Origin: a virus
Reading direction: 5' to 3' (one strand)
DNA length: 33,098 nucleotides
IMG/VR virus record: IMGVR_UViG_3300047159_000020
Coordinates: 1 to 33,098 of that record
Of the stretch, positions 319 through 33,063 are shown piece by piece. Every line of letters starts with the position of its first letter. Position 1 is the first letter of the stretch. Under the pieces are notes generated by a model. The model saw only the letters and a program-made list of their open reading frames with translations, had not been told where the DNA came from and did not search any database. Position numbers and translations under genes: made by a program.

Positions 319-506
319 TTGCAATTCCTCCGATGCGCCTTGCGCCGCTTCGCCTTGAGTGCCTGGCGCTTGGCCTGATTAACGCCGCCGCGCTGGCCGT
401 TTGTCATGTTTGCAAAATTCGACCGATCGATAGCCATTGGCCTGATTGCCGACGTTGCCGCAGAAAACATCATCCGCAACCAGCTTGAAATAAATGCGCC
501 GTTCAT
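315..506 (-). CDS. Hypothetical small basic protein (63 aa)
   Basis: ATGA overlap with the end of the 380-aa gene. Lys/Arg-rich C-terminus (KRQALKAKRRKAHRR). Confidence 0.5.
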   Translation of the reverse strand: MNGAFISSWLRMMFSAATSAIRPMAIDRSNFANMTNGQRGGVNQAKRQALKAKRRKAHRRNCK

Positions 507-1645
507 GCCGCCTCCTTGGTTTCTGTCTTCGTGATCGCGACGACCGCCGCGTAAATGTCGGCGAGCATTTGCAAGTCTTCGACGTTTTCGACGATTTCAA
601 TGATGCGATCTTGCCCGACGACAATCCGGTCTCTTTCAAGCATCTCTTTGTGGTCAGCTTTGCGCTTCGCTGCTTCGATCTTTTCAAGCTCCACGCGCCC
701 ATCGGCGTATTTCGCCTCCTGCTCGGCGCGCTCCCGGTCTTCGCGCTCCTTGCTGGCAATTTCCCATATCAGCCTTGCGGCAGCCTCGTCCGCCTCGAAC
801 TTGGCGCGCTGCTCTTCCAGCGCTTTGCGCTCGGCAGCCAACTTCTCGGCCTCGATACGGCGCAGTTCGTCGGCTTTGTCCTGTTCGACCTTGCGGGCGG
901 CAGCCTCGACGCGCTCACGCTCGGCACGCTCGGCAGCCTCGGCATCTGCCTTTGCCTTGGCCGCTGCCGCCTCTTCCTTGCGGACCTGTTCGGCGACGCG
1001 GGCGGCCTCTTCTGCAGCAATCTTCGCCAGGATTCGTTCGTTCTGGGCCTTCGCTGCAGCCTCTTCAGACGCCCGCTTTGCTTCTACGGTCGTGCGAATC
1101 TCGGCAACCGCTGCGGCATGAGTCTCTTTCGCCTCCCCGAAAAACTCGGCGAACGAGGAGTCAATCTCGATTTCCTCGACCGCGGAAAGTATCCCGGCCG
1201 CGCCTTCGCTCGATACGCTGAAGTGCGCCGCGTTGGATGCCGCAAGCTTCATTAGCGCTATACGCTGCGTGATTTCCAGCACGCGCAGGCGCTCGGCTTC
1301 TGCCTTTGCGGCTTTCTCGCGCGCCGCTTCAGCGTCCCATTCGTCGCGGAGCGCCTTCAGGCGGGATTCTTCCGGCTGGATTATTGCGACCAGGCGCGCC
1401 TCTTCGGCGATGACCGCCTTTGAGAACCGGGTCGCGTCGTCACGCGCGGCCTTGCCGGCCTGCACGATTCCGGTGCGCGCCTTCGTTGCCGCCATTGCCG
1501 CAGAGTGGCACTCTTCCCTTCCTGCCCGGTTGGTAATCGCCGTGATGCCCTTCGACGACTCGGCGAGGGCCTGAAGTTCGGCCGCCGCCTTGCTGGACTC
1601 CAGCGCAACCGCTGCGCGCTGCTGTACTGTCAATTCTGTTCCCAT
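503..1645 (-). CDS. Ala/Glu/Arg-rich coiled-coil protein in the recombination module (380 aa)
   Basis: Long ORF whose start overlaps the exonuclease stop (TAATG). Low-complexity helical sequence (AEAERLR, EEAAAAKAKADAEAAERAERER). Sits next to exo/recT. Function unknown. Confidence 0.7.
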   Translation of the reverse strand: MGTELTVQQRAAVALESSKAAAELQALAESSKGITAITNRAGREECHSAAMAATKARTGIVQAGKAARDDATRFSKAVIAEEARLVAIIQPEESRLKALRDEWDAEAAREKAAKAEAERLRVLEITQRIALMKLAASNAAHFSVSSEGAAGILSAVEEIEIDSSFAEFFGEAKETHAAAVAEIRTTVEAKRASEEAAAKAQNERILAKIAAEEAARVAEQVRKEEAAAAKAKADAEAAERAERERVEAAARKVEQDKADELRRIEAEKLAAERKALEEQRAKFEADEAAARLIWEIASKEREDRERAEQEAKYADGRVELEKIEAAKRKADHKEMLERDRIVVGQDRIIEIVENVEDLQMLADIYAAVVAITKTETKEAA

Positions 1646-2265
1646 TACGCCACCATCCTTTCAAGTCGTTGTTGTAGTTCGTCCGCCTCGGATTCGGCGG
1701 CCAGGACCGCCGATTCAATCCGAGCAATCATTGCCTCGTCACGCATGACGGGGATAATCAGTAGCTGGTGACTCTTCGGCATGCGAGGGTCGAAGCTGGC
1801 AAAATTCCAGCGCTTGAACCCTGTCACCCACATGCCGCCCTGTATCTGCGGGATGTACTCGGCAGGGACGCCCGAGAGGAAGCGCGCAAGGTGAACCGCC
1901 GAGTCTTTCGGGCACTTCAGTTCGAGCCCTTCGATTTCTCCGATCAAGCCATCCGGCGACGCCCCGGCAAATTGGTATTGAGGATGCTCAAGGAACCCGA
2001 CTTGCTGAACGGCTTTGCCGGTTTCAAGCTCGAACGCTTCGCGGGCGAATTCCTCTACTTCCGACCCCCACTGCAGCGCGAAGCCGGCCGGCCCCTCTGA
2101 TGGCTGCCCGGTCATGCGCTCGACGACCACTTGCCAGATTGCGTCGGCGCGGCACTTCAGCGGCTTGCCGGTGCGCTCCGACACGGCGATCAGGTCGGCG
2201 AACCTGCTGGCCGTCCACTTGCCGCAGCGCTCCCGCAGCCATTCCTGTGACCCCTGCTCACTCAT
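1645..2265 (-). CDS. YqaJ/lambda-Exo-type recombination exonuclease
   Basis: MSEQGSQEWLRERCGKWTASRFADL N-terminus and GASPDGL...LELKCP (D..E.K) core. Internal ATG at 2265 chosen because it overlaps the recT stop by 8 nt. Confidence 0.8.
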   Translation of the reverse strand: MSEQGSQEWLRERCGKWTASRFADLIAVSERTGKPLKCRADAIWQVVVERMTGQPSEGPAGFALQWGSEVEEFAREAFELETGKAVQQVGFLEHPQYQFAGASPDGLIGEIEGLELKCPKDSAVHLARFLSGVPAEYIPQIQGGMWVTGFKRWNFASFDPRMPKSHQLLIIPVMRDEAMIARIESAVLAAESEADELQQRLERMVA

Positions 2266-3238
2266 CGTCGCCACCTTCTTGCGCATCTTCGGCGGACAGC
2301 TTGGCGTCAAGCTCGCGCATCGCCCGCGTCGTCTCGGCGGCGATCGCCCTCAGTCGCTTGTGCTCGTCTGCTCCGACCGTCAGCCGGCCCTCCTTCCCGA
2401 TATCCGCGAAAGCGTCGGCGTATGCGACCTCGCCATCCTCGTTGGCGATCTTTTCGAGCTTGGCGACCAGTTCGGCGCGCGCATCTGCGTCGACCTCGGC
2501 GTCGGCTTGCTGCTTTGCCGCCTCGGCCGCTTGCTTGCCGGTCTGGCGCCTGGCCGGCGCCGGCATCGGGTTGATTTCCTTTTCGCCAACATCATCCGCT
2601 GACATTTCCTCGTCCGTATAGACGCCAAGGATTGCGCCAGGGGCGTACCGGCGCGCGAACTTTCGCACGGCCAGGTAGGTGATTTGCTGCTGCGGATCAG
2701 TCGCCCACTGCGTCGAGAAGCGCGGCCATGCCTGGGCCAGCAGCACTTCAATCTCGCGCGGCTCGGACTCCCCCTTGAGGCGCGCTATGCACTTCACGCC
2801 AAGCCCTGCTTCGGCGCTTCTGTCCCACGTCGACACGTAGTATTTGCCGCCGCTTTTCTCGCTCGTCTTTTCGGCGACCTTCCCGAGAATCTTCGACCAG
2901 TCGCCGAAAAACTCGAATTCTGGCTGGCCGACGATTGCGCCGCAGGACACGATCACAGCGTTGACCAACTGCGCCTCGTACCCGAGCGTGCCGCCTTGCG
3001 TCAGGTGCGTCTTCTGCGCAACGGCAAAAGGGTTCATCTTCCACTGCGCCGCCTGCATGATCACCGCCAGGCAGTCGCCGATAGATCCCTGCAAGTGCTT
3101 TGGAATGGTGACGCGCGCTGAAGCCATGAGCTTCGCGGCCGTCATCATGCTCTCCATTGCGCCATCGTCCATTACCAACGACATGGCGCTGCCGGTGCCG
3201 TCATGAGCGACTGCGGGTAGATTTTCGTGCTGGTCCAT
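2258..3238 (-). CDS. recT: RecT/Red-beta family single-strand annealing protein
   Basis: 326 aa from MDQHEN, with AAGGAAC SD upstream of the ATG at 3238. AQWKMNPFAVAQKTHL..GYEAQLVNAVI core, acidic C-terminus, adjacent to the YqaJ exonuclease. Confidence 0.75.
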   Translation of the reverse strand: MDQHENLPAVAHDGTGSAMSLVMDDGAMESMMTAAKLMASARVTIPKHLQGSIGDCLAVIMQAAQWKMNPFAVAQKTHLTQGGTLGYEAQLVNAVIVSCGAIVGQPEFEFFGDWSKILGKVAEKTSEKSGGKYYVSTWDRSAEAGLGVKCIARLKGESEPREIEVLLAQAWPRFSTQWATDPQQQITYLAVRKFARRYAPGAILGVYTDEEMSADDVGEKEINPMPAPARRQTGKQAAEAAKQQADAEVDADARAELVAKLEKIANEDGEVAYADAFADIGKEGRLTVGADEHKRLRAIAAETTRAMRELDAKLSAEDAQEGGDDE

Positions 3239-3284
3239 CTTCGTTCCTTTCTGCCGAGACTCTGCCGGCAATTGGTTGTGCTGC

Positions 3285-3521
3285 TCAGTCGTGGTAATCG
3301 AGCGCTTGCTGTATTTCGCCGACCAGAAGGCGCAGGTACGTCTTGCATCCGGCCTCGTTTTTCGCGGCCATCGCGTCGTTCGCCTTGGCGATCAGGCGAT
3401 TGACCTCGTGCAGCAGGCCGGCCGTGGTGTATGCGTCGTCGTCCGGGCCGCCGCGATAATCTGCCGGGTCACGGACGAACGGCCCGAACGTTGCTGCGTC
3501 GCCGAACCCTGGGCTATTCAT
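3285..3521 (-). CDS. Hypothetical protein (78 aa)
   Basis: ATGA overlap with the upstream gene. No motif recognised. Confidence 0.55.
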   Translation of the reverse strand: MNSPGFGDAATFGPFVRDPADYRGGPDDDAYTTAGLLHEVNRLIAKANDAMAAKNEAGCKTYLRLLVGEIQQALDYHD

Positions 3522-3781
3522 TGCAGGAACCCGCGCAGAACGTCGCCAACGGCCAACATCAGCACCAACACGACGCCGACGAAAAAGACCTTTTCACTAA
3601 ACGGCGTGTCGTCGCGAGGGGCGGCTAGTTCGCGCAGCTCATCTGGCGTCAGCTCACACGCCTCGATTGTGTCGGCGGCGATTGACGCCCAAGAGGCAGC
3701 GGCGCGCATGTCGCCATCTTCGAGCGCCGAAAGCGCTCGGCTCAGGGCTTCGCAAGCGCCTTCCTCGGTCGTGGCGTTCAT
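3518..3781 (-). CDS. Hypothetical protein with C-terminal TM segment (87 aa)
   Basis: Start MNATTEEG at 3781 gives an ATGA overlap with the upstream stop. The C-terminus VFFVGVVLVLMLAVGDVL is hydrophobic. Confidence 0.55.
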   Translation of the reverse strand: MNATTEEGACEALSRALSALEDGDMRAAASWASIAADTIEACELTPDELRELAAPRDDTPFSEKVFFVGVVLVLMLAVGDVLRGFLQ

Positions 3782-4206
3782 GCCGTCCACCCCCACCCGA
3801 TGCGGTCAGCGCGCGCATGCTCGGCGTTTTCGATCAGGCGAGAGCGAAGCTCTGCAATCTGCCGGTCACGGTCGCGGAGTTGGCTTACAAGCGAATCGTT
3901 CGCGACACACGCTTGCGCCAATCCATCGTCTAGACGCTTGATTGTTGCCTGCGCCTCGCAAAGCAACTCGCGCATAGCATCTTCGCGGGCGATGCCCTCG
4001 GATATTGTGACGAGCAGAGACAATCGGCTATCGCGCTCTTGATCGAGCAGCCGGCGAAGTTCGCCCACCTGGACGCGCGCCGTGTCGCTGATGTCCATCT
4101 GTTCGCGCCACTGCCGGCGCAGCGCGTCGACACGTATATTCAAGCGGTCGATGTGCGCCGCCGATTGTGCTGCTCGCGCCTCAGCGCATGTGCATCTTGT
4201 TTCCAT
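3778..4206 (-). CDS. First gene of the leftward operon; coiled-coil protein (142 aa)
   Basis: Strong SD (taGGAGGgtggatcgATG). Heptad-like Arg/Leu/Glu-rich sequence. Confidence 0.65.
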   Translation of the reverse strand: METRCTCAEARAAQSAAHIDRLNIRVDALRRQWREQMDISDTARVQVGELRRLLDQERDSRLSLLVTISEGIAREDAMRELLCEAQATIKRLDDGLAQACVANDSLVSQLRDRDRQIAELRSRLIENAEHARADRIGWGWTA

Positions 4207-4683
4207 CGATCCACCCTCCTAACGGTTGTATGGTCCCGGATTTCCACCGGTATCTAGCAATCGTGTCGAGGCTAGTCCCGAAGACCGGTTACGCTATCCG
4301 GCGCCAAAAAAAGCCGACTTCTCTATGTGTGATTCGCCCATTTTATGTATCGGCAAAGAGTTCATTAACTTCGCCTATCCGCTTACTAGGCCAGCGGAGG
4401 GCCGATTAAACCGGGTCAATCATTTTTTGCTCCGTTTTTTATCGGTGTCGTCTATGGCAATGCCAATCTCTCTTGGCCGGTCGCGAAGCTTTCGTTACAT
4501 CGTTACGCCAGCCGTAAGCCGCTGGTCGCTTTGCTGTGGGTTGCCCTGGCGGCAAGCGTCCGGTCACAGCTCACGGATCGCCTTTTGTTCAGCACGAGGG
4601 GAGAACTTCTCCGTGCCTAGCGCTTTCGCGCCTCACCGCCAGGGCGGTTGGTCTGTGCCGCGTTGGGTTGCGGCATGGGTTTA

Positions 4684-4712
4684 ACTATACGGATTCCCTA
4701 ACTGCGCGTCAA
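4684..4712 (-). promoter_or_regulatory. Leftward sigma70-type promoter (PL-like)
   Basis: On the minus strand: TTGACG (4712-4707), 17 nt spacer, TATAGT (4689-4684). Predicted TSS is near 4677, about 470 nt upstream of the first ORF. Confidence 0.6.
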
Positions 4713-8462: not shown

Positions 8463-8690
8463 ATGGAAACTTTCATACAACCAAAAATCACAGGCTATCG
8501 CCAGCTGAACGAAGCGGAGGCTGCGCTTATGAACGAAATCAAAGCGCGTGGCGTTGAGATTGGCGAACTCGTCAACAAGCTGCGCAACACAGCGGGAATT
8601 GACAGCCGGTGGGCAAGCATTGGAGCGACCGACTTGCAGACTGGTCTTATGGCGCTAACGCGCGCAGTCGCCAAGCCGACGACGTTCTAA
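8463..8690 (+). CDS. Acb2/Tad1-like small helical protein (candidate cyclic-oligonucleotide sponge)
   Basis: GGAG SD. ITGYRQLNEAEAALMNEIKARG...DSRWASIGATDLQTGLMALTRAVAKPTTF matches the helix-hairpin family pattern as I remember it. Confidence 0.5.
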   Translation: METFIQPKITGYRQLNEAEAALMNEIKARGVEIGELVNKLRNTAGIDSRWASIGATDLQTGLMALTRAVAKPTTF

Positions 8691-8929: not shown

Positions 8930-9225
8930 ATGGCGACATATCATGAACTGGTAGCACAGAAAGCGGCGCTCGACGCGCAGATCGAAGAAGCGCGCAAGAC
9001 GGAAGTGTCGGCGGCCGTCGCTGAGGTCAAGCGGCTGGTCGGCGAGTATGGATTGACGGCTGTCGATTGCGGATTCGGCGCCCCGGCGAAGAAGGCGAAG
9101 AAAAGGTGCCGGTCAAGTACCGCGGGCCGAACGGTGAAGCCTGGACAGGGCGCGGGAAAACGCCGGCGTGGGTCATCGCGCAAGAAGCGGCCGGACGCAC
9201 GCGAGAATCGCTCCTGGCAAACTGA
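8930..9225 (+). pseudogene. H-NS-like nucleoid protein gene interrupted by a 1-nt frameshift
   Basis: The N-terminal frame reads MATYHELVAQKAALDAQIEEARK..EYGLTAVD..PAKKAKK. The -1 frame from about 9100 reads VPVKYRGPNGEAWTGRGKTPAWVIAQEAAGRTRESLLAN*, which carries the H-NS DNA-binding motif. The break is at aagAAAAgg (9098-9106). Confidence 0.7.
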
Positions 9226-9226
9226 C

Positions 9227-9571
9227 ATGACGACCCGGGCGCATGCGGCGATCGCTGAAAAACTCGACCAGGTGGCGGACGAGATGCGCGCGGCGTCCGA
9301 CGTCATCCGGGCTCGATCGTCTCGCACGCCAGAAAAGCCGCACCTCGTGGCGCTGGCAAGAAGCGCTCGGGTCGCCGCTCTCATGCTGCGCGCTCACATG
9401 CCGGACTCAGATCGGGCGATGCATCTGGCCGGTGAGCTGATTGGCGTCGGATGCGGGCTGCTCGAGTGGGCCGATTACGCGCCATGCGCATCGGTCGACA
9501 GGATGAGGGCAGAGAATTTGCGGGCGGTCGCAGGGTTCGTTGCGGCAAGGGCGCAGGAGCTGAGGTCATGA
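9227..9571 (+). CDS. Hypothetical protein (114 aa)
   Basis: ATG lies 1 nt after the stop of the H-NS C-terminal frame. The track ORF 8924-9571 is a chimera of the hns 5' part, out-of-frame readthrough and this gene. Confidence 0.5.
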   Translation: MTTRAHAAIAEKLDQVADEMRAASDVIRARSSRTPEKPHLVALARSARVAALMLRAHMPDSDRAMHLAGELIGVGCGLLEWADYAPCASVDRMRAENLRAVAGFVAARAQELRS

Positions 9572-9735
9572 CGCAAGATCGCATTGAGCAGTTCGAAGAG
9601 CGCGCCGCAATCATCGAATTCGAGTCCGGCGAGCACATCTCGCGGCAGGCATCAGAGAAATTGGCGGCCGAGTATTTGCAGCTCACGGAAGACGAAATCG
9701 AATTCCTGCAAGGGGCCGGCATTGCGAGATTTTGA
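9568..9735 (+). CDS. Hypothetical acidic protein (55 aa)
   Basis: ATGA overlap. MTQDRIEQFEERAAIIEFESGEHISRQ... Confidence 0.45.
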   Translation: MTQDRIEQFEERAAIIEFESGEHISRQASEKLAAEYLQLTEDEIEFLQGAGIARF

Positions 9736-9789
9736 GCGGCGGGAATACGGCGACCCGGAAGCGGTTGCAATCAGACGAGAGGAGCAGAC

Positions 9790-10260
9790 ATGCAAGTGAT
9801 GCCAGTCAATCGAGACGATAATGGCTTTTGGTGTGGAGCACGAAATCTGCGACGACGGAAAGCCGAAAGCGCGGCGGTGCAGGAAGTGCAAGGCCAAGGT
9901 TTTGACGAAATGAAGCGGGCTCAGGTCGACAAGGTTGTCAGCATCCTGGAGGATTGGGCCAGGTGGCAGCAGGCGTACTCCGTGTTTCTCGGGGCTCCGC
10001 GCCGGTCGCTTGGGTTCGACCTTGGAGGGTCGGCGGTTACTGCTGAGTCTGGCGAGCAGAACAGGGAAGTGGACGACCGGGAGCGGTGCAAGATCGTTGA
10101 TGCGTGCGTCGACAGCCTGGAGGTGCCTGCACAGAGGGCGGCTATCCATCGCCGGTATCTGTCTGCTGTCTATCGCATGCGCGATTACGAGCAGGCGCTG
10201 TGCGCGGCTCACGAGGCGCTGCTGGTGGCGTTTCTGGATAAGCGGCTGCTGGTGGCTTGA
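9790..10260 (+). CDS. Q-like late-gene antiterminator (putative)
   Basis: GAGAGGAG SD. VVSILEDWARWQQAY...GFDLGG...DDRERCKIVDACVDSL...YL resembles the lambdoid Q family pattern (LERWGAW...DDD...). It is the last rightward early gene before the late promoter. Confidence 0.45.
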   Translation: MQVMPVNRDDNGFWCGARNLRRRKAESAAVQEVQGQGFDEMKRAQVDKVVSILEDWARWQQAYSVFLGAPRRSLGFDLGGSAVTAESGEQNREVDDRERCKIVDACVDSLEVPAQRAAIHRRYLSAVYRMRDYEQALCAAHEALLVAFLDKRLLVA

Positions 10261-10284
10261 AAGAAAAAACCGCCCGAAGGCGGC
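10261..10284 (-). terminator. Intrinsic terminator of the leftward five-gene cassette
   Basis: The minus strand reads CCGCC-TTCG-GGCGG followed by TTTTTTCTT. On the plus strand there is no T-run, so it is unidirectional. Confidence 0.7.
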
Positions 10285-10300
10285 TGGAGCTGGGTGGCGG

Positions 10301-10510
10301 TTAAGCCTCGAAAATGATGCGCTCGCCGTCGCGAACGGTTGAAATGTCGGAGGTCTTGGCAAGCGCTACAGTGTCGCACGCGTAGACTCGTGCAGCCGTG
10401 CATGTGCCCGTCCCTTTGGCGTGCTGCGCGAACGAAAGTGCAGCGCACTCAGTGGAGGTGCTGCGGATAATCCGCGAGGGCCGACCGAAGTAGACGATTG
10501 CGTATCTCAT
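10301..10510 (-). CDS. Cassette gene 5, hypothetical (69 aa)
   Basis: AAGGAGA SD and an ATGA overlap with the RHH gene's stop. MRYAIVYFGRPSRIIRSTSTECAALSF... has no recognised family. Confidence 0.55.
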   Translation of the reverse strand: MRYAIVYFGRPSRIIRSTSTECAALSFAQHAKGTGTCTAARVYACDTVALAKTSDISTVRDGERIIFEA

Positions 10511-10686
10511 TGCCGATTCTCCTTGCTGTTTTCCAACCACTCGCGAAGGGCTTGCGATCCTCCGCGCCGGATGTACTCGGCTTTCTGCTCCGAGCTGACG
10601 CGGGCCTCGATGCGCTCGACCTGCCCGCGCGGGGCGATGGTCGGCTGGCGACCTTGGCCGGGCGCGTTGCCTTTGCGCTTTGTCAT
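10507..10686 (-). CDS. Cassette gene 4, ribbon-helix-helix-like DNA-binding protein (59 aa)
   Basis: Basic disordered N-terminus, then VERIEARVSSEQKAEYIRRGGSQALREWL (beta-strand/helix/helix pattern of the CopG/Arc type). ATGA overlaps at both ends. Confidence 0.5.
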   Translation of the reverse strand: MTKRKGNAPGQGRQPTIAPRGQVERIEARVSSEQKAEYIRRGGSQALREWLENSKENRQ

Positions 10687-10976
10687 GCTTCCGCCTTGTT
10701 GTTTGCGCGAACCATTGCCCGATACTCGCGCCGGATTAGTGCGGGCAGTTTGTCGATACTGGAGCAGTGCAGCGTGCTGCCGCGGCTGGAAAGCTTGTCG
10801 CAGACTTGCGCCGTGTTTCCGTTGCCAAGGCGCTCGATCACGTAACCGCCGGCGCGAGGGCATGAGAATGTGCGCTTCGTGCGGACCGTCTCGTAATTGT
10901 CGAAGTCCGGCGACTCGGTGTCGAATTCAACTGAAACGCTTGCGTCGAACTTGTCGGTGGTGAATTTTGCTTTCAT
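10683..10976 (-). CDS. Cassette gene 3, hypothetical (97 aa)
   Basis: AAGGAGA SD 5 nt after a GNRA hairpin. MKAKFTTDKFDASVSVEFDTESPDFDNYE...GGYVIERLGNGNTAQVCDKL... Confidence 0.55.
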   Translation of the reverse strand: MKAKFTTDKFDASVSVEFDTESPDFDNYETVRTKRTFSCPRAGGYVIERLGNGNTAQVCDKLSSRGSTLHCSSIDKLPALIRREYRAMVRANNKAEA

Positions 10977-10990
10977 CTCATTCTCCTTGC

Positions 10991-11004
10991 GGCCCTTGCG
11001 GGCC
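10991..11004 (-). promoter_or_regulatory. Intercistronic GNRA-tetraloop hairpin (copy A)
   Basis: The minus strand reads GGCCC-GCAA-GGGCC, lying between the stop of gene 2 (11011) and the SD of gene 3. Confidence 0.55.
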
Positions 11005-11010
11005 TGTTTG

Positions 11011-11226
11011 TTAAGCGGATACTTGTTTCGGAAGCGCAGTGCTGAACTGACCTCTAAAACAAAACTCAAAAGCGTCAGCGCGAACGCGGCGGGCCGGGCG
11101 AATTTCGCCAGAGTTCATTTTTACGAAAAACGGGAATCCGGCCTGCACTTGGCAAATATTGCCAGTGCAGTTTATTACGCTGAACTTGTTGGCGCGTAGT
11201 GTTGATATTCTAGTTGTTGGCATCAT
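11011..11226 (-). CDS. Cassette gene 2, hypothetical (71 aa), coding status uncertain
   Basis: It has the same stop-hairpin-GGAGA-ATG architecture as gene 3. However, its composition is odd and it contains a 28-bp inverted repeat (11143-11170). Confidence 0.35.
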   Translation of the reverse strand: MMPTTRISTLRANKFSVINCTGNICQVQAGFPFFVKMNSGEIRPARRVRADAFEFCFRGQFSTALPKQVSA

Positions 11227-11239
11227 CTTCTTCTCCTGT

Positions 11240-11257
11240 GCGGCCCTTGCGGGCCGC
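11240..11257 (-). promoter_or_regulatory. Intercistronic GNRA-tetraloop hairpin (copy B)
   Basis: The minus strand reads GCGGCCC-GCAA-GGGCCGC, lying between the stop of gene 1 (11265) and the GGAGA SD of gene 2. Confidence 0.55.
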
Positions 11258-11264
11258 GTTGTGT

Positions 11265-11522
11265 TTATGCGGCAAGAATTTGCTGCTTTGTGAACCCTTC
11301 TGTCGTGTAGATGCTAACCCCTCCCCTTGGGCCGATGCCCACATAAAAAAAGAAACGAACATAAAACCACGCTTTATCGCTGCAATAAGTGTTGCTTCCA
11401 AACAGTAAGACGTGACCATCGCTAGAGGTTTCGGCGCTGAAATGCAAACCTCCATCGCGATCTGCCAGTTTGTTTGTCCAGGATGTGATGCGTTGGATTT
11501 TTGCGGTCTGCGCTTTGTTCAT
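11265..11522 (-). CDS. Cassette gene 1, hypothetical (85 aa)
   Basis: AAGGAGAACGAG-ATG at 11522. MNKAQTAKIQRITSWTNKLADRDGGLHFSAETSSDGHVLLFGSNTYCSDKAWFYVRFFFYVGIGPRGGVSIYTTEGF. The upstream part of track ORF 11265-11984 is antisense to terS and was ignored. Confidence 0.6.
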   Translation of the reverse strand: MNKAQTAKIQRITSWTNKLADRDGGLHFSAETSSDGHVLLFGSNTYCSDKAWFYVRFFFYVGIGPRGGVSIYTTEGFTKQQILAA

Positions 11523-11553
11523 CTCGTTCTCCTTGGTGTTGTGTGTCGGTGTC

Positions 11554-11572
11554 TGTATTGTACGACAATACA
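11554..11572. promoter_or_regulatory. Operator-like palindrome overlapping the cassette promoter
   Basis: TGTATTGT-acg-ACAATACA (8-bp perfect arms) covers the -10 and spacer of the leftward promoter. Confidence 0.5.
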
Positions 11573-11584
11573 AACAGGTGTCAA
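11557..11584 (-). promoter_or_regulatory. Near-consensus sigma70 promoter of the leftward cassette
   Basis: On the minus strand: TTGACA (11584-11579), 16 nt spacer, TACAAT (11562-11557). Confidence 0.65.
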
Positions 11585-11610
11585 GAAGAATTTTGACAAC
11601 CATCAGGCGC

Positions 11611-11639
11611 TTGACAATGGCCCGAGGCTGTCGCAGAAT
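11611..11639 (+). promoter_or_regulatory. Candidate rightward late promoter upstream of terS
   Basis: TTGACA (11611-11616), 17 nt spacer, CAGAAT (11634-11639). A second TTGACA at 11593-11598 has no good -10. A T6 run lies at 11656-11661. Confidence 0.45.
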
Positions 11640-11700
11640 CCGCACGTCGGGGCAGAGATGCTGGCTTTTTTCGTTCACGGAGGTGTTGGAGGGTTGCGGA

Positions 11701-12129
11701 GTGGCGCTCAATCGTCGGCAAGCGCTGTTCGTGGCTGAGTACCTCAAGGATTTGAACGCTAGCGCCGCGGCAAGGCGGGCCGGGTACAGCGAGAAAAGCG
11801 CGTTCCGAAGCGGCGTGCAGAATATGCAGAAATCGGCAATCACCGATGCAATCGCCGCAGCAATGAAAGAGCGATCAGAGCGCGTGCAGATCACCGCCGA
11901 CAAAGTTCTGTCAGACATTGAGGCGATCAAAGCCGACGCAATGCGAGAGGCGGCAGACAAAGATGGCAAACTGGCGATGGTCAATCACGCCGCGGCGCTC
12001 AAGGCCTGCGAGCTGCAAGGACGGCATCTGCAGATGTGGACCGACAAGATCAAGGTCGACGGAGACATGGCAGTGACGATGATCACGCGCAGAATCATTG
12101 GTGGCGATGGCTCGCAACCTGGTAATTAA
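11701..12129 (+). CDS. terS: Terminase small subunit (Terminase_2-like)
   Basis: GGAGGG SD plus GTG start. LNRRQALFVAEYLKDLNASAAARRAGYSEKSAFRSGVQNMQKSAI..ITADKVLSDIEAI is the classic TerS HTH pattern. Confidence 0.75.
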   Translation: MALNRRQALFVAEYLKDLNASAAARRAGYSEKSAFRSGVQNMQKSAITDAIAAAMKERSERVQITADKVLSDIEAIKADAMREAADKDGKLAMVNHAAALKACELQGRHLQMWTDKIKVDGDMAVTMITRRIIGGDGSQPGN

Positions 12130-13320
12130 CACTGCCAAGGTTTTCGAGCCGCTGCTGCAGCCTGCGCGATATAAAGGCGCGTGGGGCGGTCGTGGTAGCG
12201 GAAAGTCGCACAATTTCGCTGAGGCGCTTATCGAGCAGTGTTTGCTTGAGCGCGGCACTCGTGCAGTGTGCATCCGGGAAGTGCAGAAGTCGCTGAAGGA
12301 ATCGAGCAAGCGGCTGATAGAGGACAAGCTGCAGGTTAAGGCTCGGAGAGGCTGACGGATTCAAGGTTTTTAACGAGGTCATCGAAACCCCCGGCGATGG
12401 GATTATCATTCCAAGGAATGCAGGACCATAACGCCGAGTCGATAAAATCGCTTGAAGGATTCAGGATTGCGTGGACAGAAGAGGCTCAAACGCTGGCAGC
12501 AAGGTCGCTGTCACTTCTCCGGCCGACGATTCGCGCGCCAGGCTCGGAATTGTGGTTTTCGTGGAACGCTCGTAGAAAGACCGATCCCGTTGATGCGCTG
12601 CTGCGCGGCGATGATTTGCCGACCGGTGCAGTAGTGGTGACGGCCAACTGGCGAGATAACCCGCTTTTCCCGGCAGAGCTTGAGCAGGAACGACTTGACT
12701 GCCTGCGCCTTGATCCTGACCAGTATCCGCACATTTGGGAGGGCGAGTACGCGACAGTGCTTGTCGGCGCTTACTACGCCAAGGCTCTTGCCGCAGCGAA
12801 GGCAGAAGGGCGCATTTGTCGCGTTGCTGCTGACCCGCTACTGCCGATTCGGTTGATTGCAGACATCGGCGGCACTGGCGCGAGAGCTGACGCTTTTGTT
12901 TTTGGGCCGTGCAGTTCGTTGGCAGAGAGGTCCGGGTGCTCAATTACTACGAGGCGGGACCGGGTTTGCTCTGTCAGCTATGAGTCTGCGCTTTCCGATG
13001 CAGGATATGACGTAGAGGTCGTGCCAAACCAAGGGCGTGGAGCGGCTGCGGCTCGTATTGAGTCTGTGCGCCGTGTTTCTCCTGCGTTTTGGTTCAATGA
13101 ATCGACGACAGAGCCTGGCAGAGAAGCTCTTGGTTGGTATCACGAGAGGCGCGATGGCGCTAGAAACATTGGACTAGGACCGGACCATGATTGGTCCTCG
13201 CACGGCTCGGACGCGTTCGGATTAATGAGTATTGCCGCTGAAGAGTTTTTCCGTGGCGACTCTCGAAAACCAACTGTTGATGATGTTGAATACTACGGTG
13301 GCGGCGGATGGATGGGCTAA
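12098..13320 (+). pseudogene. terL: Terminase large subunit (PBSX/Terminase_3-like) with multiple frame disruptions
   Basis: A Walker A motif (KGAWGGRGSGKS) lies in the 12098 frame, which stops at 12353. Homology continues in a second frame (LGEADGFKVFNEVIETPGDGIII, stop at 12429). It then moves to a third frame (FQGMQDHNAESIKSLEGF...). It drops back for 12900-12980 (FWAVQFVGREVRVLNYYEAGPG) and returns again (SYESALSDAGYDVEVVPNQG...HDWSSHGSDAF). Confidence 0.75.
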
Positions 13321-27518: not shown

Positions 27519-28424
27519 GTGACGGTCATTGTATCCCCGCCAGTGCCGAAATCAGATCAGAGGTTTGACGACTGGATGTATTTGTTCTGGAAACGAGTCT
27601 TTGAGGCGATTGCCGGCTCCGGAGGAGGGCCGGTGGACCTAACGGATTATGCGTACCTTCCGGGGCGCGTTGGAGGGCAGCTGCTTCACGGCGGCGCAAA
27701 CAATGACGACGCGCTAATCCTTCAAGGAACGGCGGGAACGAGCGGAGACACGGCAGATGCAATTCTGCTGAAAACTGGCACCGCAGGCGACCAGACTGCC
27801 GTCAAGGTTCGCGGAGATGGGTCCGTAGCAATAAACGGCGACTACGACGGAACGTATGGAATGCCCACGGCGATAAGCGGCGGCGCGCTGTTCCATGGCG
27901 GAAACGGAGAGATTGGCATGCTCAGCGTTACAACAGACACCATAGCCGCCGGGTTTTTTAATCTAGGTGAGTATGTAGTGAATATAGGTCAGAACGCCAC
28001 CCAAACAAGCAACATCGGCGCGGGCGCCTTGCTTTCTATCTATAAAAATCAAGACATGAACGGATACGACAATCTTGCAGGGATGATTGACCTTCATGAT
28101 AGTCCGTCGGGAACAGGAAACAGAACCAACGTCACGGTAAGCATAAAAATCGACAGCATAATAAGGGCGCGCTTGTACCCAAGAATCCCAGACGGGACGA
28201 TAGGCGAGGCGTACCTGTTTGACACGAAAACAGAAATCACGCAGACGGACACAAAGCTATTATCAATAAAGAATTCAGGCGTTACAAAGTTTTCAGTTGA
28301 CTGTAACGGCATGCTGTTTTGTGACAGCATCCCAGAGTACACGGACAACGCAGACGCCGTGTCTGACGGGCTTGTCGTAGGGAACGTCTACCACACAGGC
28401 GGCGACTTGAAGATCGTCATCTGA
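27519..28424 (+). CDS. Tail fibre protein (301 aa)
   Basis: GAGG SD plus GTG start. Gly/Thr/Asn-rich. The C-terminal YTDNADAVSDGLVVGNVYHTGGDLKIVI resembles a fibre C-terminal motif common in environmental podophages. The 3' half is A/T-richer. Confidence 0.55.
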   Translation: MTVIVSPPVPKSDQRFDDWMYLFWKRVFEAIAGSGGGPVDLTDYAYLPGRVGGQLLHGGANNDDALILQGTAGTSGDTADAILLKTGTAGDQTAVKVRGDGSVAINGDYDGTYGMPTAISGGALFHGGNGEIGMLSVTTDTIAAGFFNLGEYVVNIGQNATQTSNIGAGALLSIYKNQDMNGYDNLAGMIDLHDSPSGTGNRTNVTVSIKIDSIIRARLYPRIPDGTIGEAYLFDTKTEITQTDTKLLSIKNSGVTKFSVDCNGMLFCDSIPEYTDNADAVSDGLVVGNVYHTGGDLKIVI

Positions 28425-28906
28425 TGACAAGCGAGCAGGAGGAAATGCACCGCATGTTGACGGTGCGCGTAAATGCTCTTTCTGACGACGTCGATAGGTT
28501 TCGGACAGAACTCGGGAAGGTCGCCGACCGAGCCGAGCAGGCGGACCGCAAGCTCGCCGACGAAATGGCAGAGGCGCTGGTAAAGGTCCACGACAAGCTC
28601 GATCAGACTATCGCCCAGCAGGCGGCCAGGCACGCCGATCAGGCAATCCAGATGTCGCGGCTGCAGTCGTCTATTGACAAGCTCGACATGGACCTGAAGG
28701 AACCTATGGAGGCGTGGAAAACGGCCAAGTACGGGTCGAAGGCGGCTGCGTTTCTGGCGTCAATTGCGAAAGCGATAGGACCAATACTGATTGCCGCGAT
28801 TGTCGGAATCGGTGCGCTGCAGACAAAAATGCTGGTTGACATCAAGACTGAAATCAAGCCCGACGTAAAAACAACAAGCAGCGCAGCAAGGGCGGGCGGA
28901 GAATGA
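28424..28906 (+). CDS. Coiled-coil protein with C-terminal TM anchor (160 aa)
   Basis: The start ATG (28424-28426) overlaps the fibre-gene stop TGA (28422-28424) by 1 nt (TGATGA). Has the TM segment AAAFLASIAKAIGPILIAAIVGIGAL. Confidence 0.55.
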   Translation: MTSEQEEMHRMLTVRVNALSDDVDRFRTELGKVADRAEQADRKLADEMAEALVKVHDKLDQTIAQQAARHADQAIQMSRLQSSIDKLDMDLKEPMEAWKTAKYGSKAAAFLASIAKAIGPILIAAIVGIGALQTKMLVDIKTEIKPDVKTTSSAARAGGE

Positions 28907-29520
28907 AGCCGATCTTCTACGGGATACTGATTGGCCTGTGCATTGCCATGCTTCCGATCATCGCATCGGCAGAAGGCGCCCCGCTAGGCTTGAATGCCGG
29001 CGCCTGGGCCGCTTCTGCGGCCTCGGCCGGAGCGTCGGCCGGGGTGTCAGTGAAAACGGCGCAGACGGCCGCGCAGCAGGTCGCAGTAACATTGAATCAG
29101 CCGGCGCCTGCGGCATCTGGTAGCGGCGGCAAGGAAACGACAGTCAGAACCGTGCCAGACGCCTACGCTCCGACGATGAACGCCACTGCGCCATGTAGGA
29201 TTTCGGTATCGGCCGGCGTGGCGGTCATCGGCATCGGGGTGTCGGGTGGCGGGAGCGTCGAAGACGACCCGTGCAACCTCCGCGAGACTGCGCGCCTACT
29301 CGACGGCATCGGGCAGCGGGAAGCGGCTGCGCGGGTCATGTGCAACGATCGGCGGGCGGCTGAGGCTCTTGGCGAAAGTATCTGTCCGTCGATCGGCGAC
29401 CGGGAGCGCTCGACCTCTCCACTTCAAAGCCAAGCCACAACAGGCCGTGGCCAGCCAATCTGCGATCAGGCGGCCCGGTTCGACGATCCGCTACTTGCGG
29501 ATCGGAACGGCTGCCGGTAG
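28903..29520 (+). CDS. Secreted Cys-rich protein (205 aa)
   Basis: ATGA overlap. Signal peptide MKPIFYGILIGLCIAMLPIIASA|EG. The mature part has 6 Cys. The last 19 codons lie inside the 65-bp repeat. Confidence 0.55.
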   Translation: MKPIFYGILIGLCIAMLPIIASAEGAPLGLNAGAWAASAASAGASAGVSVKTAQTAAQQVAVTLNQPAPAASGSGGKETTVRTVPDAYAPTMNATAPCRISVSAGVAVIGIGVSGGGSVEDDPCNLRETARLLDGIGQREAAARVMCNDRRAAEALGESICPSIGDRERSTSPLQSQATTGRGQPICDQAARFDDPLLADRNGCR

Positions 29521-29992
29521 TCGCTGCCTCATACTGATCGCCGGTTATTTCGTAGTACCTTGGGCTTGGCGACGTTTCCATCGCGCACAATCTGCCTGTT
29601 TCGCCGTGCTGCCAATATCTCATCACGAAATCACTTTCTCTAGCATTTTCTGCGCCTTGCTTGGCTTCGTCCACCAGTGATGGTGAGTCGGTCGCCATCC
29701 TCGTAACCATAGGGCGATCCGCGCAACCTGGCTGTCGGGGGTCTGCGCAAAGGCGCGTCCGTACCGCCCGATCCTGATATGCCACACATTCATTACGGCT
29801 AGCCTTCGCCGCCCGCATTTCGTCATCATCGACGCTCTCCACAACGTGCTGCGCGAAGTCCGCGAGCAAGTCCAGCCGCCGCCGCATGTTGTCGCTCTCG
29901 GCGCTTCCTGGTGGGGCGATCATCAGTAGATCGCCAAGCGTCGACTTGTGCGCCAGCGCGCGGATTGTTTCCAGCCACTCTCTGTTCATCAC
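29336..29992 (-). CDS. Hypothetical protein (218 aa); 3' end uncertain
   Basis: The ATG at 29992 overlaps the upstream gene's stop codon (29989-29991) by 1 nt (TGATG). The last ~60 codons read through repeat copy 1 and overlap the convergent 205-aa gene by 185 nt. Confidence 0.45.
   Translation of the reverse strand: MMNREWLETIRALAHKSTLGDLLMIAPPGSAESDNMRRRLDLLADFAQHVVESVDDDEMRAAKASRNECVAYQDRAVRTRLCADPRQPGCADRPMVTRMATDSPSLVDEAKQGAENARESDFVMRYWQHGETGRLCAMETSPSPRYYEITGDQYEAATTGSRSDPQVADRRTGPPDRRLAGHGLLWLGFEVERSSAPGRRSTDRYFRQEPQPPADRCT
29460..29524. repeat. 65-bp hairpin-forming direct repeat, copy 1
   Basis: ctgcgatcaggcggcccggttcgacgatccgctacttgcggatcggaacggctgccggtagtcgc is identical to 31027-31091. 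The central stem is CGATCCGC-tactt-GCGGATCG. Confidence 0.9.
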
Positions 29993-30210
29993 GTCACCAA
30001 TCTGCCTTGGCGCATCTCGTCTCCGATAATTTCCTCAGCATCTGCCCGAGCCTCTGCGATCCTTTCACATTGACAATTCGGCAGTCCGGTAGCTGCTTGG
30101 ATGTCGTGGTCGTGCGTGCGGTCCATCACTGCCGACAGCGCCCTTGCCATACGAAGGCAGCGCGCTTTCCACAGGTCCTTCTCGTTCGCGAATTGACTCA
30201 TCGTTTCCAT
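29989..30210 (-). CDS. Hypothetical protein (73 aa)
   Basis: METMSQFANEKDLWKARCL... The ATG at 30210 lies 4 nt after the upstream stop. Confidence 0.5.
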   Translation of the reverse strand: METMSQFANEKDLWKARCLRMARALSAVMDRTHDHDIQAATGLPNCQCERIAEARADAEEIIGDEMRQGRLVT

Positions 30211-30214
30211 TTCG

Positions 30215-30487
30215 TCATTCCTCGCATCTGCGCTGCCACTGAGCGCGTGACCGGCGGTTAAATTCGGCAATGATCTGCTCTGCCAGTTCATGCGGAACAA
30301 GGTCTTTTATCACCCTGGCGGCAAGGATCGAGTCGCCGAAACCTCTGGCAGCCTCGAAAATTGTTGCCGCCATCTTTGGCGGGTTCCGGCGCTCGTGGCA
30401 ATGGCCGTGAGCGTGCCCGCCGTCACCGTCCGAGACGAACAGATTCTGATCGTCTATCGGCTTCCCGCAAATGCTGCAATCGTTCAT
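30215..30487 (-). CDS. Putative zinc-binding protein (90 aa)
   Basis: MNDCSICGKPID...GHAHGHCHERR (CxxC plus a His/Cys cluster). Preceded by the conserved RBS cassette. Confidence 0.5.
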   Translation of the reverse strand: MNDCSICGKPIDDQNLFVSDGDGGHAHGHCHERRNPPKMAATIFEAARGFGDSILAARVIKDLVPHELAEQIIAEFNRRSRAQWQRRCEE

Positions 30488-30510
30488 TTCATCACCTTTG
30501 CAATTGACCG

Positions 30511-30720
30511 TTAGGAATTCGGTTTGACAAGATCAACATTGGCCCGCATTCGTGCGCCGCCGCGCTCGTCAGCATAGTCGAGCGCAAAAGTTACTTTTCG
30601 CACCTTCCAGACTTTTTTTCTGATGCTTATCATGTCTCCGGTTTGCGGAACCATTGACGAAAGCGCATGGGCTATCGCCGTATCCCCGTCGTAAAACTCT
30701 ATTGTGTCGTTGTTGGCCAT
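30511..30720 (-). CDS. Hypothetical protein (69 aa)
   Basis: GAGAGG SD. MANNDTIEFYDGDTAIAHAL... Confidence 0.5.
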   Translation of the reverse strand: MANNDTIEFYDGDTAIAHALSSMVPQTGDMISIRKKVWKVRKVTFALDYADERGGARMRANVDLVKPNS

Positions 30721-30725
30721 TCCTA

Positions 30726-30836
30726 TACCTCTCGTCATGTGCTGCTGTTAGTAGTCATCACGCTCTACCAGTAATTCGCGCTGACCAGTATCTCGGCGCT
30801 GCAATTGTGCTTTTCGCACACAGCTTTCGCCCACTC
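30726..30836. repeat. ~110-bp repeated gene junction, copy A
   Basis: 30726-30751 is identical to 31580-31605 (26/26). 30765-30836 matches 31616-31687 at 70/72. The middle 10-13 nt differ. Confidence 0.85.
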
Positions 30837-30985
30837 GTTCCGCTGCCGTTGTGGTGCATTTCGGCGCCTCTATTTATGGCCTCGTTGATGGCCTCATCAA
30901 GCGACTCGGCATCCACGTCCGTATAGGCGCTACCGTTTGTCCGTCGAGCGGCGACCAGCAACCATCCGCCGGCGAGTATACGCAA
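30758..30985 (-). CDS. Hypothetical protein (75 aa); the 3' part is probably frame-shifted relative to its paralogue
   Basis: The DNA of the last ~25 codons is 97% identical to the 3' end of gene 31616-31972 but is read in a different frame. The paralogous frame (NEWAKAVCEKHNCSAEILVSANYW*) is open for only ~33 codons. Confidence 0.35.
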   Translation of the reverse strand: MRILAGGWLLVAARRTNGSAYTDVDAESLDEAINEAINRGAEMHHNGSGTSGRKLCAKSTIAAPRYWSARITGRA

Positions 30986-31319
30986 CGCCAGGAGGCAAGA
31001 TCACATAGCCAGGCCACGCAAGAAGCCTGCGATCAGGCGGCCCGGTTCGACGATCCGCTACTTGCGGATCGGAACGGCTGCCGGTAGTCGCGGAATCTTC
31101 ATTGGCGCAGAATAGCCGATCCATTTCCGCGTGCTGCGAGCTTTTGAAGTTCAGCGGGTTCGAGTCTTCCCATTCGCCAATGTCGCGCACATCTACTGAC
31201 AGCACGGACGGCGAAATGCAGCGGTTCGGATACTTTGCCTCTTCAATCGTGCGCCTCACACCGCACGGACCAAGGTCGTCGAAATCGACAACGGCCAGAA
31301 CAATTTTCATCACGTTCAT
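30930..31319 (-). CDS. Hypothetical protein (129 aa); 3' end uncertain
   Basis: MNVMKIVLAVVDFDDLGP..., preceded by the conserved RBS cassette. The C-terminal ~55 codons read through repeat copy 2. Confidence 0.45.
   Translation of the reverse strand: MNVMKIVLAVVDFDDLGPCGVRRTIEEAKYPNRCISPSVLSVDVRDIGEWEDSNPLNFKSSQHAEMDRLFCANEDSATTGSRSDPQVADRRTGPPDRRLLAWPGYVILPPGVAYTRRRMVAGRRSTDKR
31027..31091. repeat. 65-bp hairpin-forming direct repeat, copy 2
   Basis: Identical to 29460-29524 at 65/65. Degenerate similarity extends ~20 nt upstream (agccaRgccac). Confidence 0.9.
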
Positions 31320-31342
31320 TTTATCGCCTTTGCAATTTGCTG

Positions 31343-31573
31343 TTAGCACGCTACCCATTCGGCCATTCCTACAAGTTCCATTTCTTCCCATTTTGCTCGG
31401 TAGTAGGCTTGCCCTCCTGGTTTTCCGTCTGAGCCAAGTCCCTGAATATATCCTTGAGCCCCAAACACTTTTTGCTCAGTCACAACCATGAAGCAGGCTG
31501 AGAACATCTTGTTCACAACGGTTTCCGGGTTCAATTGAACAAGTTGGCCATTTTTCAACTCTTGCTTTTCCAT
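31343..31573 (-). CDS. Hypothetical protein (76 aa)
   Basis: GAGAGG SD. MEKQELKNGQLVQLNPETVV... Confidence 0.5.
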   Translation of the reverse strand: MEKQELKNGQLVQLNPETVVNKMFSACFMVVTEQKVFGAQGYIQGLGSDGKPGGQAYYRAKWEEMELVGMAEWVAC

Positions 31574-31579
31574 TCTATC

Positions 31580-31687
31580 TACCTCTCGTCATGTGCTGCT
31601 GTTAGGAATCCGCCGCTACCAGTAATTCGCGCTGACAAGTATCTCGGCGCTGCAATTGTGCTTTTCGCACACCGCTTTCGCCCACTC
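31580..31687. repeat. ~110-bp repeated gene junction, copy B
   Basis: See copy A. It spans the 3' end of gene 31616-31972, its stop, and the SD region of gene 31343-31573. Confidence 0.85.
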
Positions 31688-31972: not shown

Positions 31973-31990
31973 GTCACTAACCTCAAAAAA

Positions 31991-32512: not shown

Positions 32513-32523
32513 TGTCTTCGCTC

Positions 32524-32985: not shown

Positions 32986-33063
32986 CTTGTGCTTCCTTTG
33001 TTGTTGGTGTTGGGTGGGGCGACCGGTGCTGATCCCCGGCATGGCCAGCCGCTTGCAACGGCT

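Follow-up and report, generated by a model that had tools for sequence, protein, structure and literature searches.

What role does a compact block of minus-strand genes play between the probable late regulator gene and the late promoter of a phage? This question is raised by the viral sequence IMGVR_UViG_3300047159_000020 (IMG/VR), whose positions 1 to 33,098 make up the window, that is, the whole stretch of 33,098 nucleotides analysed here. Five short open reading frames (ORFs), named g1 to g5 in their order of transcription, are tightly packed at window positions 10301-11522, all coordinates being as first described. A preliminary description of the sequence had regarded them as a moron-like unit with a role in defence, toxin-antitoxin function, superinfection exclusion or anti-defence; among these candidates, the comparative evidence favoured anti-defence and disfavoured toxin-antitoxin function.

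The best explanation for the region is that it represents one allele of a hypervariable accessory-gene locus found in phages like EBPR podovirus 1 (EPV1, JF412294) and in other activated-sludge phages. As to function, we lean, with modest confidence, towards an autorepressed counter-defence cassette resembling the operons of anti-CRISPR (acr) and anti-CRISPR-associated (aca) genes. Two conclusions are held with much higher confidence: the locus is a variable-cargo cassette built on g4 and its promoter, and the five genes do not form an obligate system.

Exchange of cargo around g4 and its promoter

About 35 related metagenome loci were compared (L-numbers denote these loci or contigs). The diverged relatives came to light in scans of IMG/VR, metagenomes and genomes, in protein look-ups and in a search for exact copies of the promoter palindrome. 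When the exact sequences were looked up, all five genes occurred together only in near-identical copies of the window phage, in many samples; in diverged relatives g1, g2, g3 and g5 appeared as independent modules combined with other cargo, which argues against the five genes acting as one functional system. At least 15 architectures were distinguished, with about 25 cargo families of 45-196 amino acids (aa), most of them of 50-134 aa. The g4 gene and the promoter with its palindrome were present in every complete cassette, in at least six phage backgrounds, and the terminator in nearly all.

With P/O for promoter plus palindrome, hp for linker hairpin, T for terminator and G4 for the g4 family, the architectures that contain window modules were P/O-g3-G4-g5-HNH-T, P/O-g3-G4-HNH-T, P/O-g3-G4-P/O-57aa-T, P/O-g3-hp-65aa-G4-60aa-T, P/O-g2-hp-g3..., P/O-73aa-hp-g2-hp-x-58aa-G4-T, P/O-125aa-hp-g2-hp-68aa-G4... 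and P/O-g1-hp-50aa-G4-T (L047). Others had different cargo (P/O-90aa-hp-68aa-G4-P/O-57aa-T and P/O-73aa-hp-78aa-G4-T) or ended in a DUF1874 gene (P/O-107aa-G4-126aa-DUF1874-T, P/O-70aa-hp-105aa-G4-126/134aa-DUF1874-T and P/O-86aa-G4-81aa-196aa-DUF1874-T), and more distant versions carried G4 relatives at 45-52% identity. The commonest cargo beside g4 was g3, present in 12 loci, although its family comprised only 14 clusters among 5.8 billion proteins. In L022, L028, L029, L040 and L041 a second copy of the promoter and palindrome drives a downstream mini-operon. In the L044-L046 phage group the cassette lies between terL and the portal gene, in the same direction as the late genes, and the antisense orientation seen in the window is therefore not essential.

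Homology between the window and its relatives started and stopped at linkers composed of a hairpin and a Shine-Dalgarno (SD) sequence, or at the 5' untranslated region (UTR) with its SD. The g2 module (window 11267-10971) was 93-98% identical in L051 and L043, where it had other neighbours, the module of promoter and g1 ended at window 11223, and the g3 block started at window 10989. The linkers are 35-50 nt long and share 84-94% mutual identity. The phage encodes RecT and a YqaJ exonuclease, and some cassette alleles carry an HNH endonuclease; RecT/YqaJ or the HNH enzyme could promote module exchange.

A comparable arrangement is known from T4-type phages, in which promoter-early stem-loop (PeSL) motifs flank small variable ORFs and coincide with the breakpoints of insertions, deletions and replacements (PMC2839356, PMC4122927). 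The cassette likewise has short conserved stem-loop regulatory motifs at breakpoints beside small variable ORFs, and the homology breakpoints of its relatives coincided with the repeated stem-loop motif. It differs in that its repeated joint consists of hairpin and SD only, without an early promoter; the cassette promoter is separate, usually single and putatively operator-controlled, and is duplicated only in some relatives. Moreover, the cassette phage is a P22-like podovirus, unrelated in phage type and host to the T4-type phages.

Some loci departed from the common layout. L042 (57-2805) contains an in-frame g3-g4 fusion caused by an internal deletion, with a linker hairpin and a terminator, and a full-length groEL gene about 0.8 kb upstream on the same strand; either the assembly is chimeric or the contig represents a remnant inserted in a host. 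In L025 (860-940), an out-of-frame remnant of the long C-terminal tail of other g4 variants (..GKLAASDKQTPMAHNASSNKQ) was found 3' of g5, suggesting that g5 has interrupted a long-form g4 at its 3' end. On the reverse strand of L062 the same promoter and palindrome (434-452) drive ORFs of 54 and 55 aa, the latter matching ribosome modulation factor below threshold (25.4 bits, cutoff 27.9), and the contig stops before any g4 gene. The one g4-bearing contig of a metagenome-assembled genome labelled Peribacteraceae is evidently a phage contig (terS-side genes, a Q-like gene and a dCTP deaminase gene), and the label therefore says nothing about the host.

The transcription unit, its putative regulator and its cargo

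The signals that make up the unit are collected in Table 1. The preliminary description had reported five leftward ORFs of 85, 71, 97, 59 and 69 aa, a near-consensus promoter, an 8+8-bp palindrome over its -10 element and spacer, GGCCC-GCAA-GGGCC hairpins before the SDs of g2 and g3, ATGA coupling of the last three genes and a unidirectional terminator, and each of these was found in place; gene calls on near-identical contigs agreed that the five are the only minus-strand genes of the region. The promoter matches 11 of 12 consensus positions and was the top promoter-like site within 9000-12500, where five such sites were found against 0.8 expected. The palindrome occurs once in the window, with no match in 100 shuffles, and the hairpin core exactly twice (11255-11242 and 11004-10991) against 0.01 expected. 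AGGAG-type SDs precede each of g1, g2 and g3, the ATGA overlaps join g3 to g4 and g4 to g5, and the homology block of promoter and UTR terminates at the SD. Read on the plus strand, the terminator stem has no T-run behind it.

Table 1. Cassette features, flanking elements and DUF1874 cargo (window coordinates unless a locus is named)
Feature	Position	Strand	Remarks
Cassette promoter	11557-11592	-	A-rich upstream AAAATTCT; -35 TTGACA (11584-11579); 16-nt spacer; -10 TACAAT (11562-11557)
Palindrome	11554-11572		8+3+8, TGTATTGT-CGT-ACAATACA; over spacer and -10; putative g4 operator
5' UTR	11523-11553	-	CA-rich, ends in SD AAGGAGAACGAG; conserved along with promoter (alignment of 21 promoter copies)
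g1	11522-11265	-	85 aa; ORFan cargo; 47% GC
Linker hairpin 1	11240-11257	-	GCGGCCC-GCAA-GGGCCGC (GNRA loop), then g2 SD; -17.3 kcal/mol, z = -4.8
g2	11226-11011	-	71 aa; ORFan cargo; 48% GC
Linker hairpin 2	10991-11004	-	GGCCC-GCAA-GGGCC, then g3 SD; -11.4 kcal/mol
g3	10976-10683	-	97 aa; cargo
g4 (G4 in the cross-locus comparison)	10686-10507	-	59 aa; sole universal cassette gene; putative autorepressor
g5	10510-10301	-	69 aa; cargo; predicted confident beta-alpha-beta-alpha-beta fold
Intrinsic terminator	10264-10284	-	GCCGCC-TTCG-GGCGG + T6, -11.9 kcal/mol; CCGCC-TTCG-GGCGG + T6 at 10283-10264
Segment missing from EPV1 and three other empty-site relatives	10273-11579	-	1307 bp; blastn junction at L001 position 4073
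Flanking 156-aa gene	9790-10260	+	Probably Q-like late regulator; convergent with cassette
Flanking late promoter	11611-11671	+	TTGACA-17-CAGAAT, then leader hairpin/terminator remnant; divergent from cassette promoter
DUF1874 cargo	L024 4355-4687; L044 4604-4945; L063 about 1.4-1.75 kb downstream of palindrome at 1298

The reading frames were conserved among relatives. Ratios of non-synonymous to synonymous divergence (pN/pS, Nei-Gojobori) were about 0.2-0.26 for g2, about 0.2 for g3, 0.15-0.6 for g4 and 0.18 for g5, which supports purifying selection on these four genes. For g1 three non-synonymous and no synonymous changes were counted, with frame and length kept in six variants. The GC content of g1 and g2 (window average 59.5%; g3 to g5, 57-65%) is consistent with a recent acquisition of these two genes.

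The g4 family comprised 42 clusters among the same 5.8 billion proteins, all at least 73% identical. Its N-terminal arm, GNxPGQGRQPTIAPRG, is invariant in protein while synonymous sites vary (pS 0.37, pN 0.057), and is followed by a strand (VERIEARV), a helix, a GGS turn and a second helix. An AlphaFold2 monomer placed helices at residues 32-40 and 43-58 after an extended segment at 23-30, with a mean pLDDT (predicted local distance difference test) score of 66, and the RRGGS turn aligned in register with ENGRS of Arc (hhalign). The ribbon-helix-helix (RHH) fold proposed for the 59-aa product thus agrees with its sequence pattern and predicted secondary structure, but searches failed to confirm it: there was no Pfam match even at E <= 10, no real match in PDB profile searches and no Foldseek match for the low-confidence model, and an hhalign comparison with Arc, Mnt, CopG, ParG, omega and Aca14 gave P = 0.028 and a probability of 1.8%. 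A PDB profile match of the g4 alignment to BurrH (E = 1.5e-12) was discarded, as it is an artefact that arose from the summing of 21 weak matches to the repeat GGAQALxxVLD.

Most g4-bearing loci had the palindrome unchanged at 19 of 19 positions, and this held even in phages with a Q-like protein of just 52% identity. In 21 distinct promoter copies of relatives TCTTGAC and TACAAT were invariant, as were the outer bases TGT-N13-ACA, even where g4 is 45-52% identical. The distant g4 variants of L038-L041 showed no covariation of operator and regulator, their operators being nearly the same, so that the association is one of co-conservation only. Because g4 is co-conserved with the promoter palindrome, we infer that it is an autorepressor acting at positions 11554-11572.

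The preliminary description had recognised nothing in the other four products, and g1, g2, g3 and g5 had no match in Pfam, PHROGs, PADLOC, NCBIfam or PDB sequences. The cargo of the relatives had no above-threshold Pfam or PHROGs match except to DUF1874, HNH and DUF7694, the last a family of unknown function. A gene similar to DUF1874/STIV_B116 (E = 1e-11; PDB 2j6b, E = 1e-6) is terminal in three different g4 operons. DUF1874 is the AcrIII-1 anti-CRISPR ring-nuclease family, whose catalytic His-47 is described as "absolutely conserved" (bioRxiv 10.1101/778746).

The predicted beta-alpha-beta-alpha-beta domain of g5 had a pLDDT of 97.1. The structural comparison suggested for the cassette proteins gave no significant Foldseek match for the models of g4 and g5; the top matches of g5, the Cas2 domain of Cas2/3 and AcrIF9, had E = 3-5 and a probability of at most 0.13, and were not used as evidence. 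The g5 family consists of about 33 representative clusters. In L057 (1-1400) and L003 (1454-1934) g5 homologues lie in unrelated operons, directly before an overlapping terminal gene of the Xre helix-turn-helix (HTH) type. Three other small ORFs precede the homologue in L057, behind a near-consensus promoter (TTGACA-16-TATAGT) whose spacer contains an inverted repeat, a layout that is, by analogy, the canonical one of acr-aca operons. Among these small ORFs of L057, one is similar to the 68-aa cargo of L022, with which it shares the motif HRVLVD.

The proposed counter-defence role and competing explanations

The acr-aca operons, such as those of Aca1 in Pseudomonas phage JBD30 and Aca2 in Pectobacterium phage ZF40, combine a strong promoter overlapped by an inverted repeat with highly variable tiny ORFans and one conserved small regulator gene that marks the locus, and they occupy a fixed site between conserved phage genes with presence/absence among close relatives. 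The cassette shares all of these traits: it has a conserved small putative DNA-binding gene with variable small genes at a fixed position, and an inverted repeat overlapping the promoter, seen at 11554-11572 and in the 21 promoter copies. No anti-defence homologue was found among the cargo of the window, while in the relatives DUF1874 is present in three architectures, with a Tyr in place of the catalytic His. The cassette differs from acr-aca operons in that g4 is no HTH protein and lacks detectable homologues among the families of Pfam, NCBIfam and PDB, the window cargo includes no known Acr, g4 often has further cargo behind it, and repression by g4 is putative.

In its anatomy the cassette appears closest to the system of Aca14 from Pasteurella multocida, an RHH-type Aca that controls more than one operon and whose inverted repeat overlaps the -10 element (bioRxiv 10.64898/2026.07.27.740549). 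Both regulators have about 60-66 aa and an N-terminal extension followed by strand-helix-helix; both inverted repeats lie over the -10 element with outer bases TGTAT...ATACA; a second neighbouring promoter exists in both (in the cassette, the duplicated promoter and palindrome of L022, L028 and L029); and both have cargo of the ring-nuclease type, csx20 with Aca14 and DUF1874 in the cassette relatives. In contrast to Aca14, helix A of g4 is about one turn shorter, an invariant Gly/Pro/Gln-rich arm replaces the helical extension, and the operator is 8+3+8 instead of 8+4+8. Because there is no detectable homology to Aca14, g4 was provisionally classed as Aca-like in its working, outside the Aca14 family.

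The P22 immI region, in which Arc and Mnt control Pant, offers another precedent, also in a P22-like phage and with a strong promoter near the late genes that overlaps the operator of a tiny RHH repressor; g4 has no detected homology to Arc or Mnt, however, and the cassette has variable cargo and no antirepressor gene.

As a counter-defence cassette, the unit would work as follows. Its near-consensus sigma-70 promoter would need no phage factor, and host polymerase would therefore fire it on phage entry. One transcript would carry the small exchangeable cargo genes (here g1, g2, g3 and g5) together with g4, whose small, probably dimeric, RHH-like product would bind the palindrome over the -10 element and spacer and shut its own promoter, as their co-conservation suggests. 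The terminator would keep transcription out of the convergent Q-like gene. The linkers, with their GNRA hairpin and SD, and the shared 5' UTR-SD would serve as 35-50-nt homology joints at which cargo is swapped between co-infecting phages, a mechanism proposed from the observed breakpoints; assistance may come from the RecT/YqaJ recombinase that the phage encodes and from the HNH homing endonuclease present in some loci. The cargo most probably neutralises host defences, or else conditions the host early in infection.

Several observations weigh against this explanation. By sequence, g1, g2, g3 and g5 resemble no known anti-defence protein, nor does g5 by its fold. The DUF1874 cargo has Tyr for the catalytic His-47 (IGY for IGH) in all three copies, and whether DUF1874 proteins natively act as anti-CRISPRs is itself a matter of dispute (bioRxiv 10.1101/2023.01.10.523387); the IGY variant may be a non-cleaving cyclic-oligoadenylate binder or have another function. 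For g4, which matched nothing in Pfam, PDB or Foldseek, the RHH assignment comes from its sequence pattern, and its alignment with Aca14 (WP_005725436/HDR1349883) gave an hhalign probability of 0.06%, that is, no detectable homology. In L048 (g4 92% identical), L040 and L041 the palindrome has a degenerate left half, so that some of its conservation may be due to recent common ancestry or to the -10 element. Finally, the integrase of EPV1 leaves room for prophage expression that benefits the host.

That last point leads to the possibility of a lysogenic-conversion moron, in which the genes would be expressed from a prophage to the benefit of the host, for instance by superinfection exclusion or by protection from other phages, and g4 would hold expression at a low constitutive level. 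Morons, as defined by Hendrix and Juhala in HK97/lambda-type phages, are extra units with their own promoter and terminator between genes that are adjacent in a relative and with a deviating base composition; classical morons consist of one gene and have no repressor of their own. The cassette has sequence-level promoter and terminator signals and is missing from a close relative in which the flanking genes adjoin, its GC content deviating in g1 and g2 (47% and 48%) but being 57-65% in g3 to g5; it differs from classical morons in keeping a scaffold of regulator and signals while its cargo is exchanged. A lysogenic role would be in line with the integrase of EPV1 and with a g5 homologue that adjoins an integrase gene in L003, yet PADLOC gave no match, the proteins (50-130 aa, soluble-looking) are unlike most defence or exclusion proteins, the cargo family held in common with anti-CRISPR DUF1874 argues in the opposite direction, and a scan of window-end ORFs (503-4684 and five ORFs in 27519-33081) recognised neither an integrase nor a repressor. 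We consider this explanation improbable.

An equally improbable account takes the cargo to be general early host-takeover genes, or genes of a "hyperplastic region", which would modulate host transcription, translation or metabolism without any link to defence. The shuffling layout does resemble the PeSL-flanked regions of T4 (PMC2839356), the cargo consists mostly of ORFans, and the ribosome modulation factor match in L062 would fit. Tight, though putative, autorepression by a dedicated regulator and the recurrence of DUF1874 are hallmarks of acr-aca operons and speak against it; the two explanations overlap, and computation cannot split them.

Much less credit is due to the idea that g4 and g5 form a type II toxin-antitoxin pair, with an RHH antitoxin upstream, a toxin downstream and the other genes as passengers. 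It could draw on the ATGA coupling of the two genes, on the putatively autoregulated promoter and on the Xre-HTH gene that overlaps g5 homologues elsewhere, as in HigBA-type pairs. However, in nearly all architectures g4 is present and g5 absent, g4 often comes last (L031, L043, L047), g5 elsewhere closes four-gene strings and not two-gene modules, its model fits no PDB toxin fold (best E-value about 3), and no Pfam or NCBIfam toxin or antitoxin match was obtained.

It is most unlikely of all that the unit serves mainly for transcriptional interference or insulation, head-on transcription and hairpins stopping early rightward transcription from reaching the late operon past the Q-like gene: convergence with the Q-like gene, the terminator-like plus-strand reading of the linker hairpins (10991-11004 and 11238-11259, with moderately T-rich tracts behind) and the lack of a late-leader hairpin in the window-type phage are outweighed by the co-oriented cassettes of L044-L046, by empty-site phages that are viable and widespread, by T-tracts that are not conserved in relatives and by purifying selection on the coding sequences. 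As a secondary effect, the linker hairpins might damp early read-through toward the late genes in the window allele.

Genomic surroundings and implications

Across 79% of its first 25 kb the window was 91.5% identical to EPV1, a P22-like phage from a phosphorus-removal reactor, which carries an integrase and was considered temperate by its authors, with Candidatus Accumulibacter as host (PMC3097231). In EPV1, the closest published relative, gp41 (the homologue of the 156-aa gene) is followed by 114 bp and then terS, giving a clean 1307-bp presence/absence difference. Together with the cassette's own promoter, operator-like palindrome and terminator, this bears out the proposal of an autonomous, moron-like transcription unit. 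The four empty sites share one identical junction, TTCTTGAC joined to GGCTTTTCC, which keeps the A-rich/-35 element of the cassette, the last three stem bases of its terminator and the T-tract; since these remnants are retained, the empty site is best read as a secondary deletion.

In tblastn searches the 156-aa protein matched genes annotated as "antitermination-like protein" and, at 36.5% identity and E = 2e-9, as "phage antitermination protein Q"; there was no Pfam or PDB match. In relatives the late promoter is followed by a strong hairpin with a T-tract. Given the Q annotations and the plus-strand promoter and hairpin downstream, the reported location of the cassette between a Q-like gene and the late promoter is reasonable.

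Other differences were observed near the cassette. Compared with EPV1 and all other relatives, the window has a 25-bp deletion at 11645-11671 (+), which takes the left arm of the hairpin GCCAGC-AGAGAT-GCTGGC-T6. In EPV1, where it is intact, this hairpin folds at -30.5 kcal/mol; it separates the late promoter from terS and is a tR'-like leader terminator. The deletion is real, as it is present in all window-type contigs from independent samples, and late transcription in the window strain may not need antitermination, given the lost leader hairpin. At 8930-9225 (+) an H-NS homologue is frameshifted by a 1-nt indel relative to the near-identical L012, L014 and L004, so that its first 55 aa and its DNA-binding C-terminal part (KVPVKYRGPNGEAWTGRGKTPAW) do not share a reading frame. 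Either the gene has been inactivated or the sequencing or assembly is in error. The EPV1 lineage carries H-NS as a counter-defence candidate (PMC3097231). At 8463-8690 (+) a 75-aa product contains PF24729 (Acb2_Tad1_hairpin), an anti-CBASS/anti-Thoeris sponge family, and a DUF7696 gene lies near this gene in relatives. The Acb2/Tad1-like gene is, by its sequence, a second counter-defence candidate outside the cassette.

New elements of this work are the regulator family, the ORFan cargo set, the linker-based shuffling pattern and their setting in phages of uncultured, industrially important hosts. On present comparisons the g4 family appears to be a new regulator family, with no homologue in Pfam, NCBIfam or PDB. 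A broader and more tentative proposal, which as a whole we think doubtful, joins four elements: g4 would represent a class of regulators of anti-defence operons that has so far gone unnoticed, with no homology detected to the curated families searched or to Aca14, the one Aca protein compared; its operator/promoter signature would tag dozens of unknown counter-defence proteins in phages of activated sludge (Accumulibacter-type); the hairpin-SD linkers would mediate an integron-like exchange through short homology of the RecT type; and the His-to-Tyr DUF1874 protein would be a non-cleaving cyclic-oligoadenylate binder.

Bacteria of the Candidatus Accumulibacter type carry out biological phosphorus removal and cannot be grown in pure culture, and to our knowledge almost nothing is known experimentally of the arms race between them, or their neighbours, and phages. 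The functions being putative, the cassette is of interest mainly as a handle for discovery. The confident g5 fold without a structural match and the DUF1874 variant without its catalytic His are tractable structural and biochemical targets. If the favoured explanation is true, the locus would add to the acr-aca paradigm a second non-HTH regulator class, unrelated to Aca14, and a concrete short-linker route by which cargo is reshuffled at such loci. If g4 is an Aca-like repressor, g4 and its 19-bp operator would provide a precise bait for counter-defence genes in the phages of Candidatus Accumulibacter and its neighbours.

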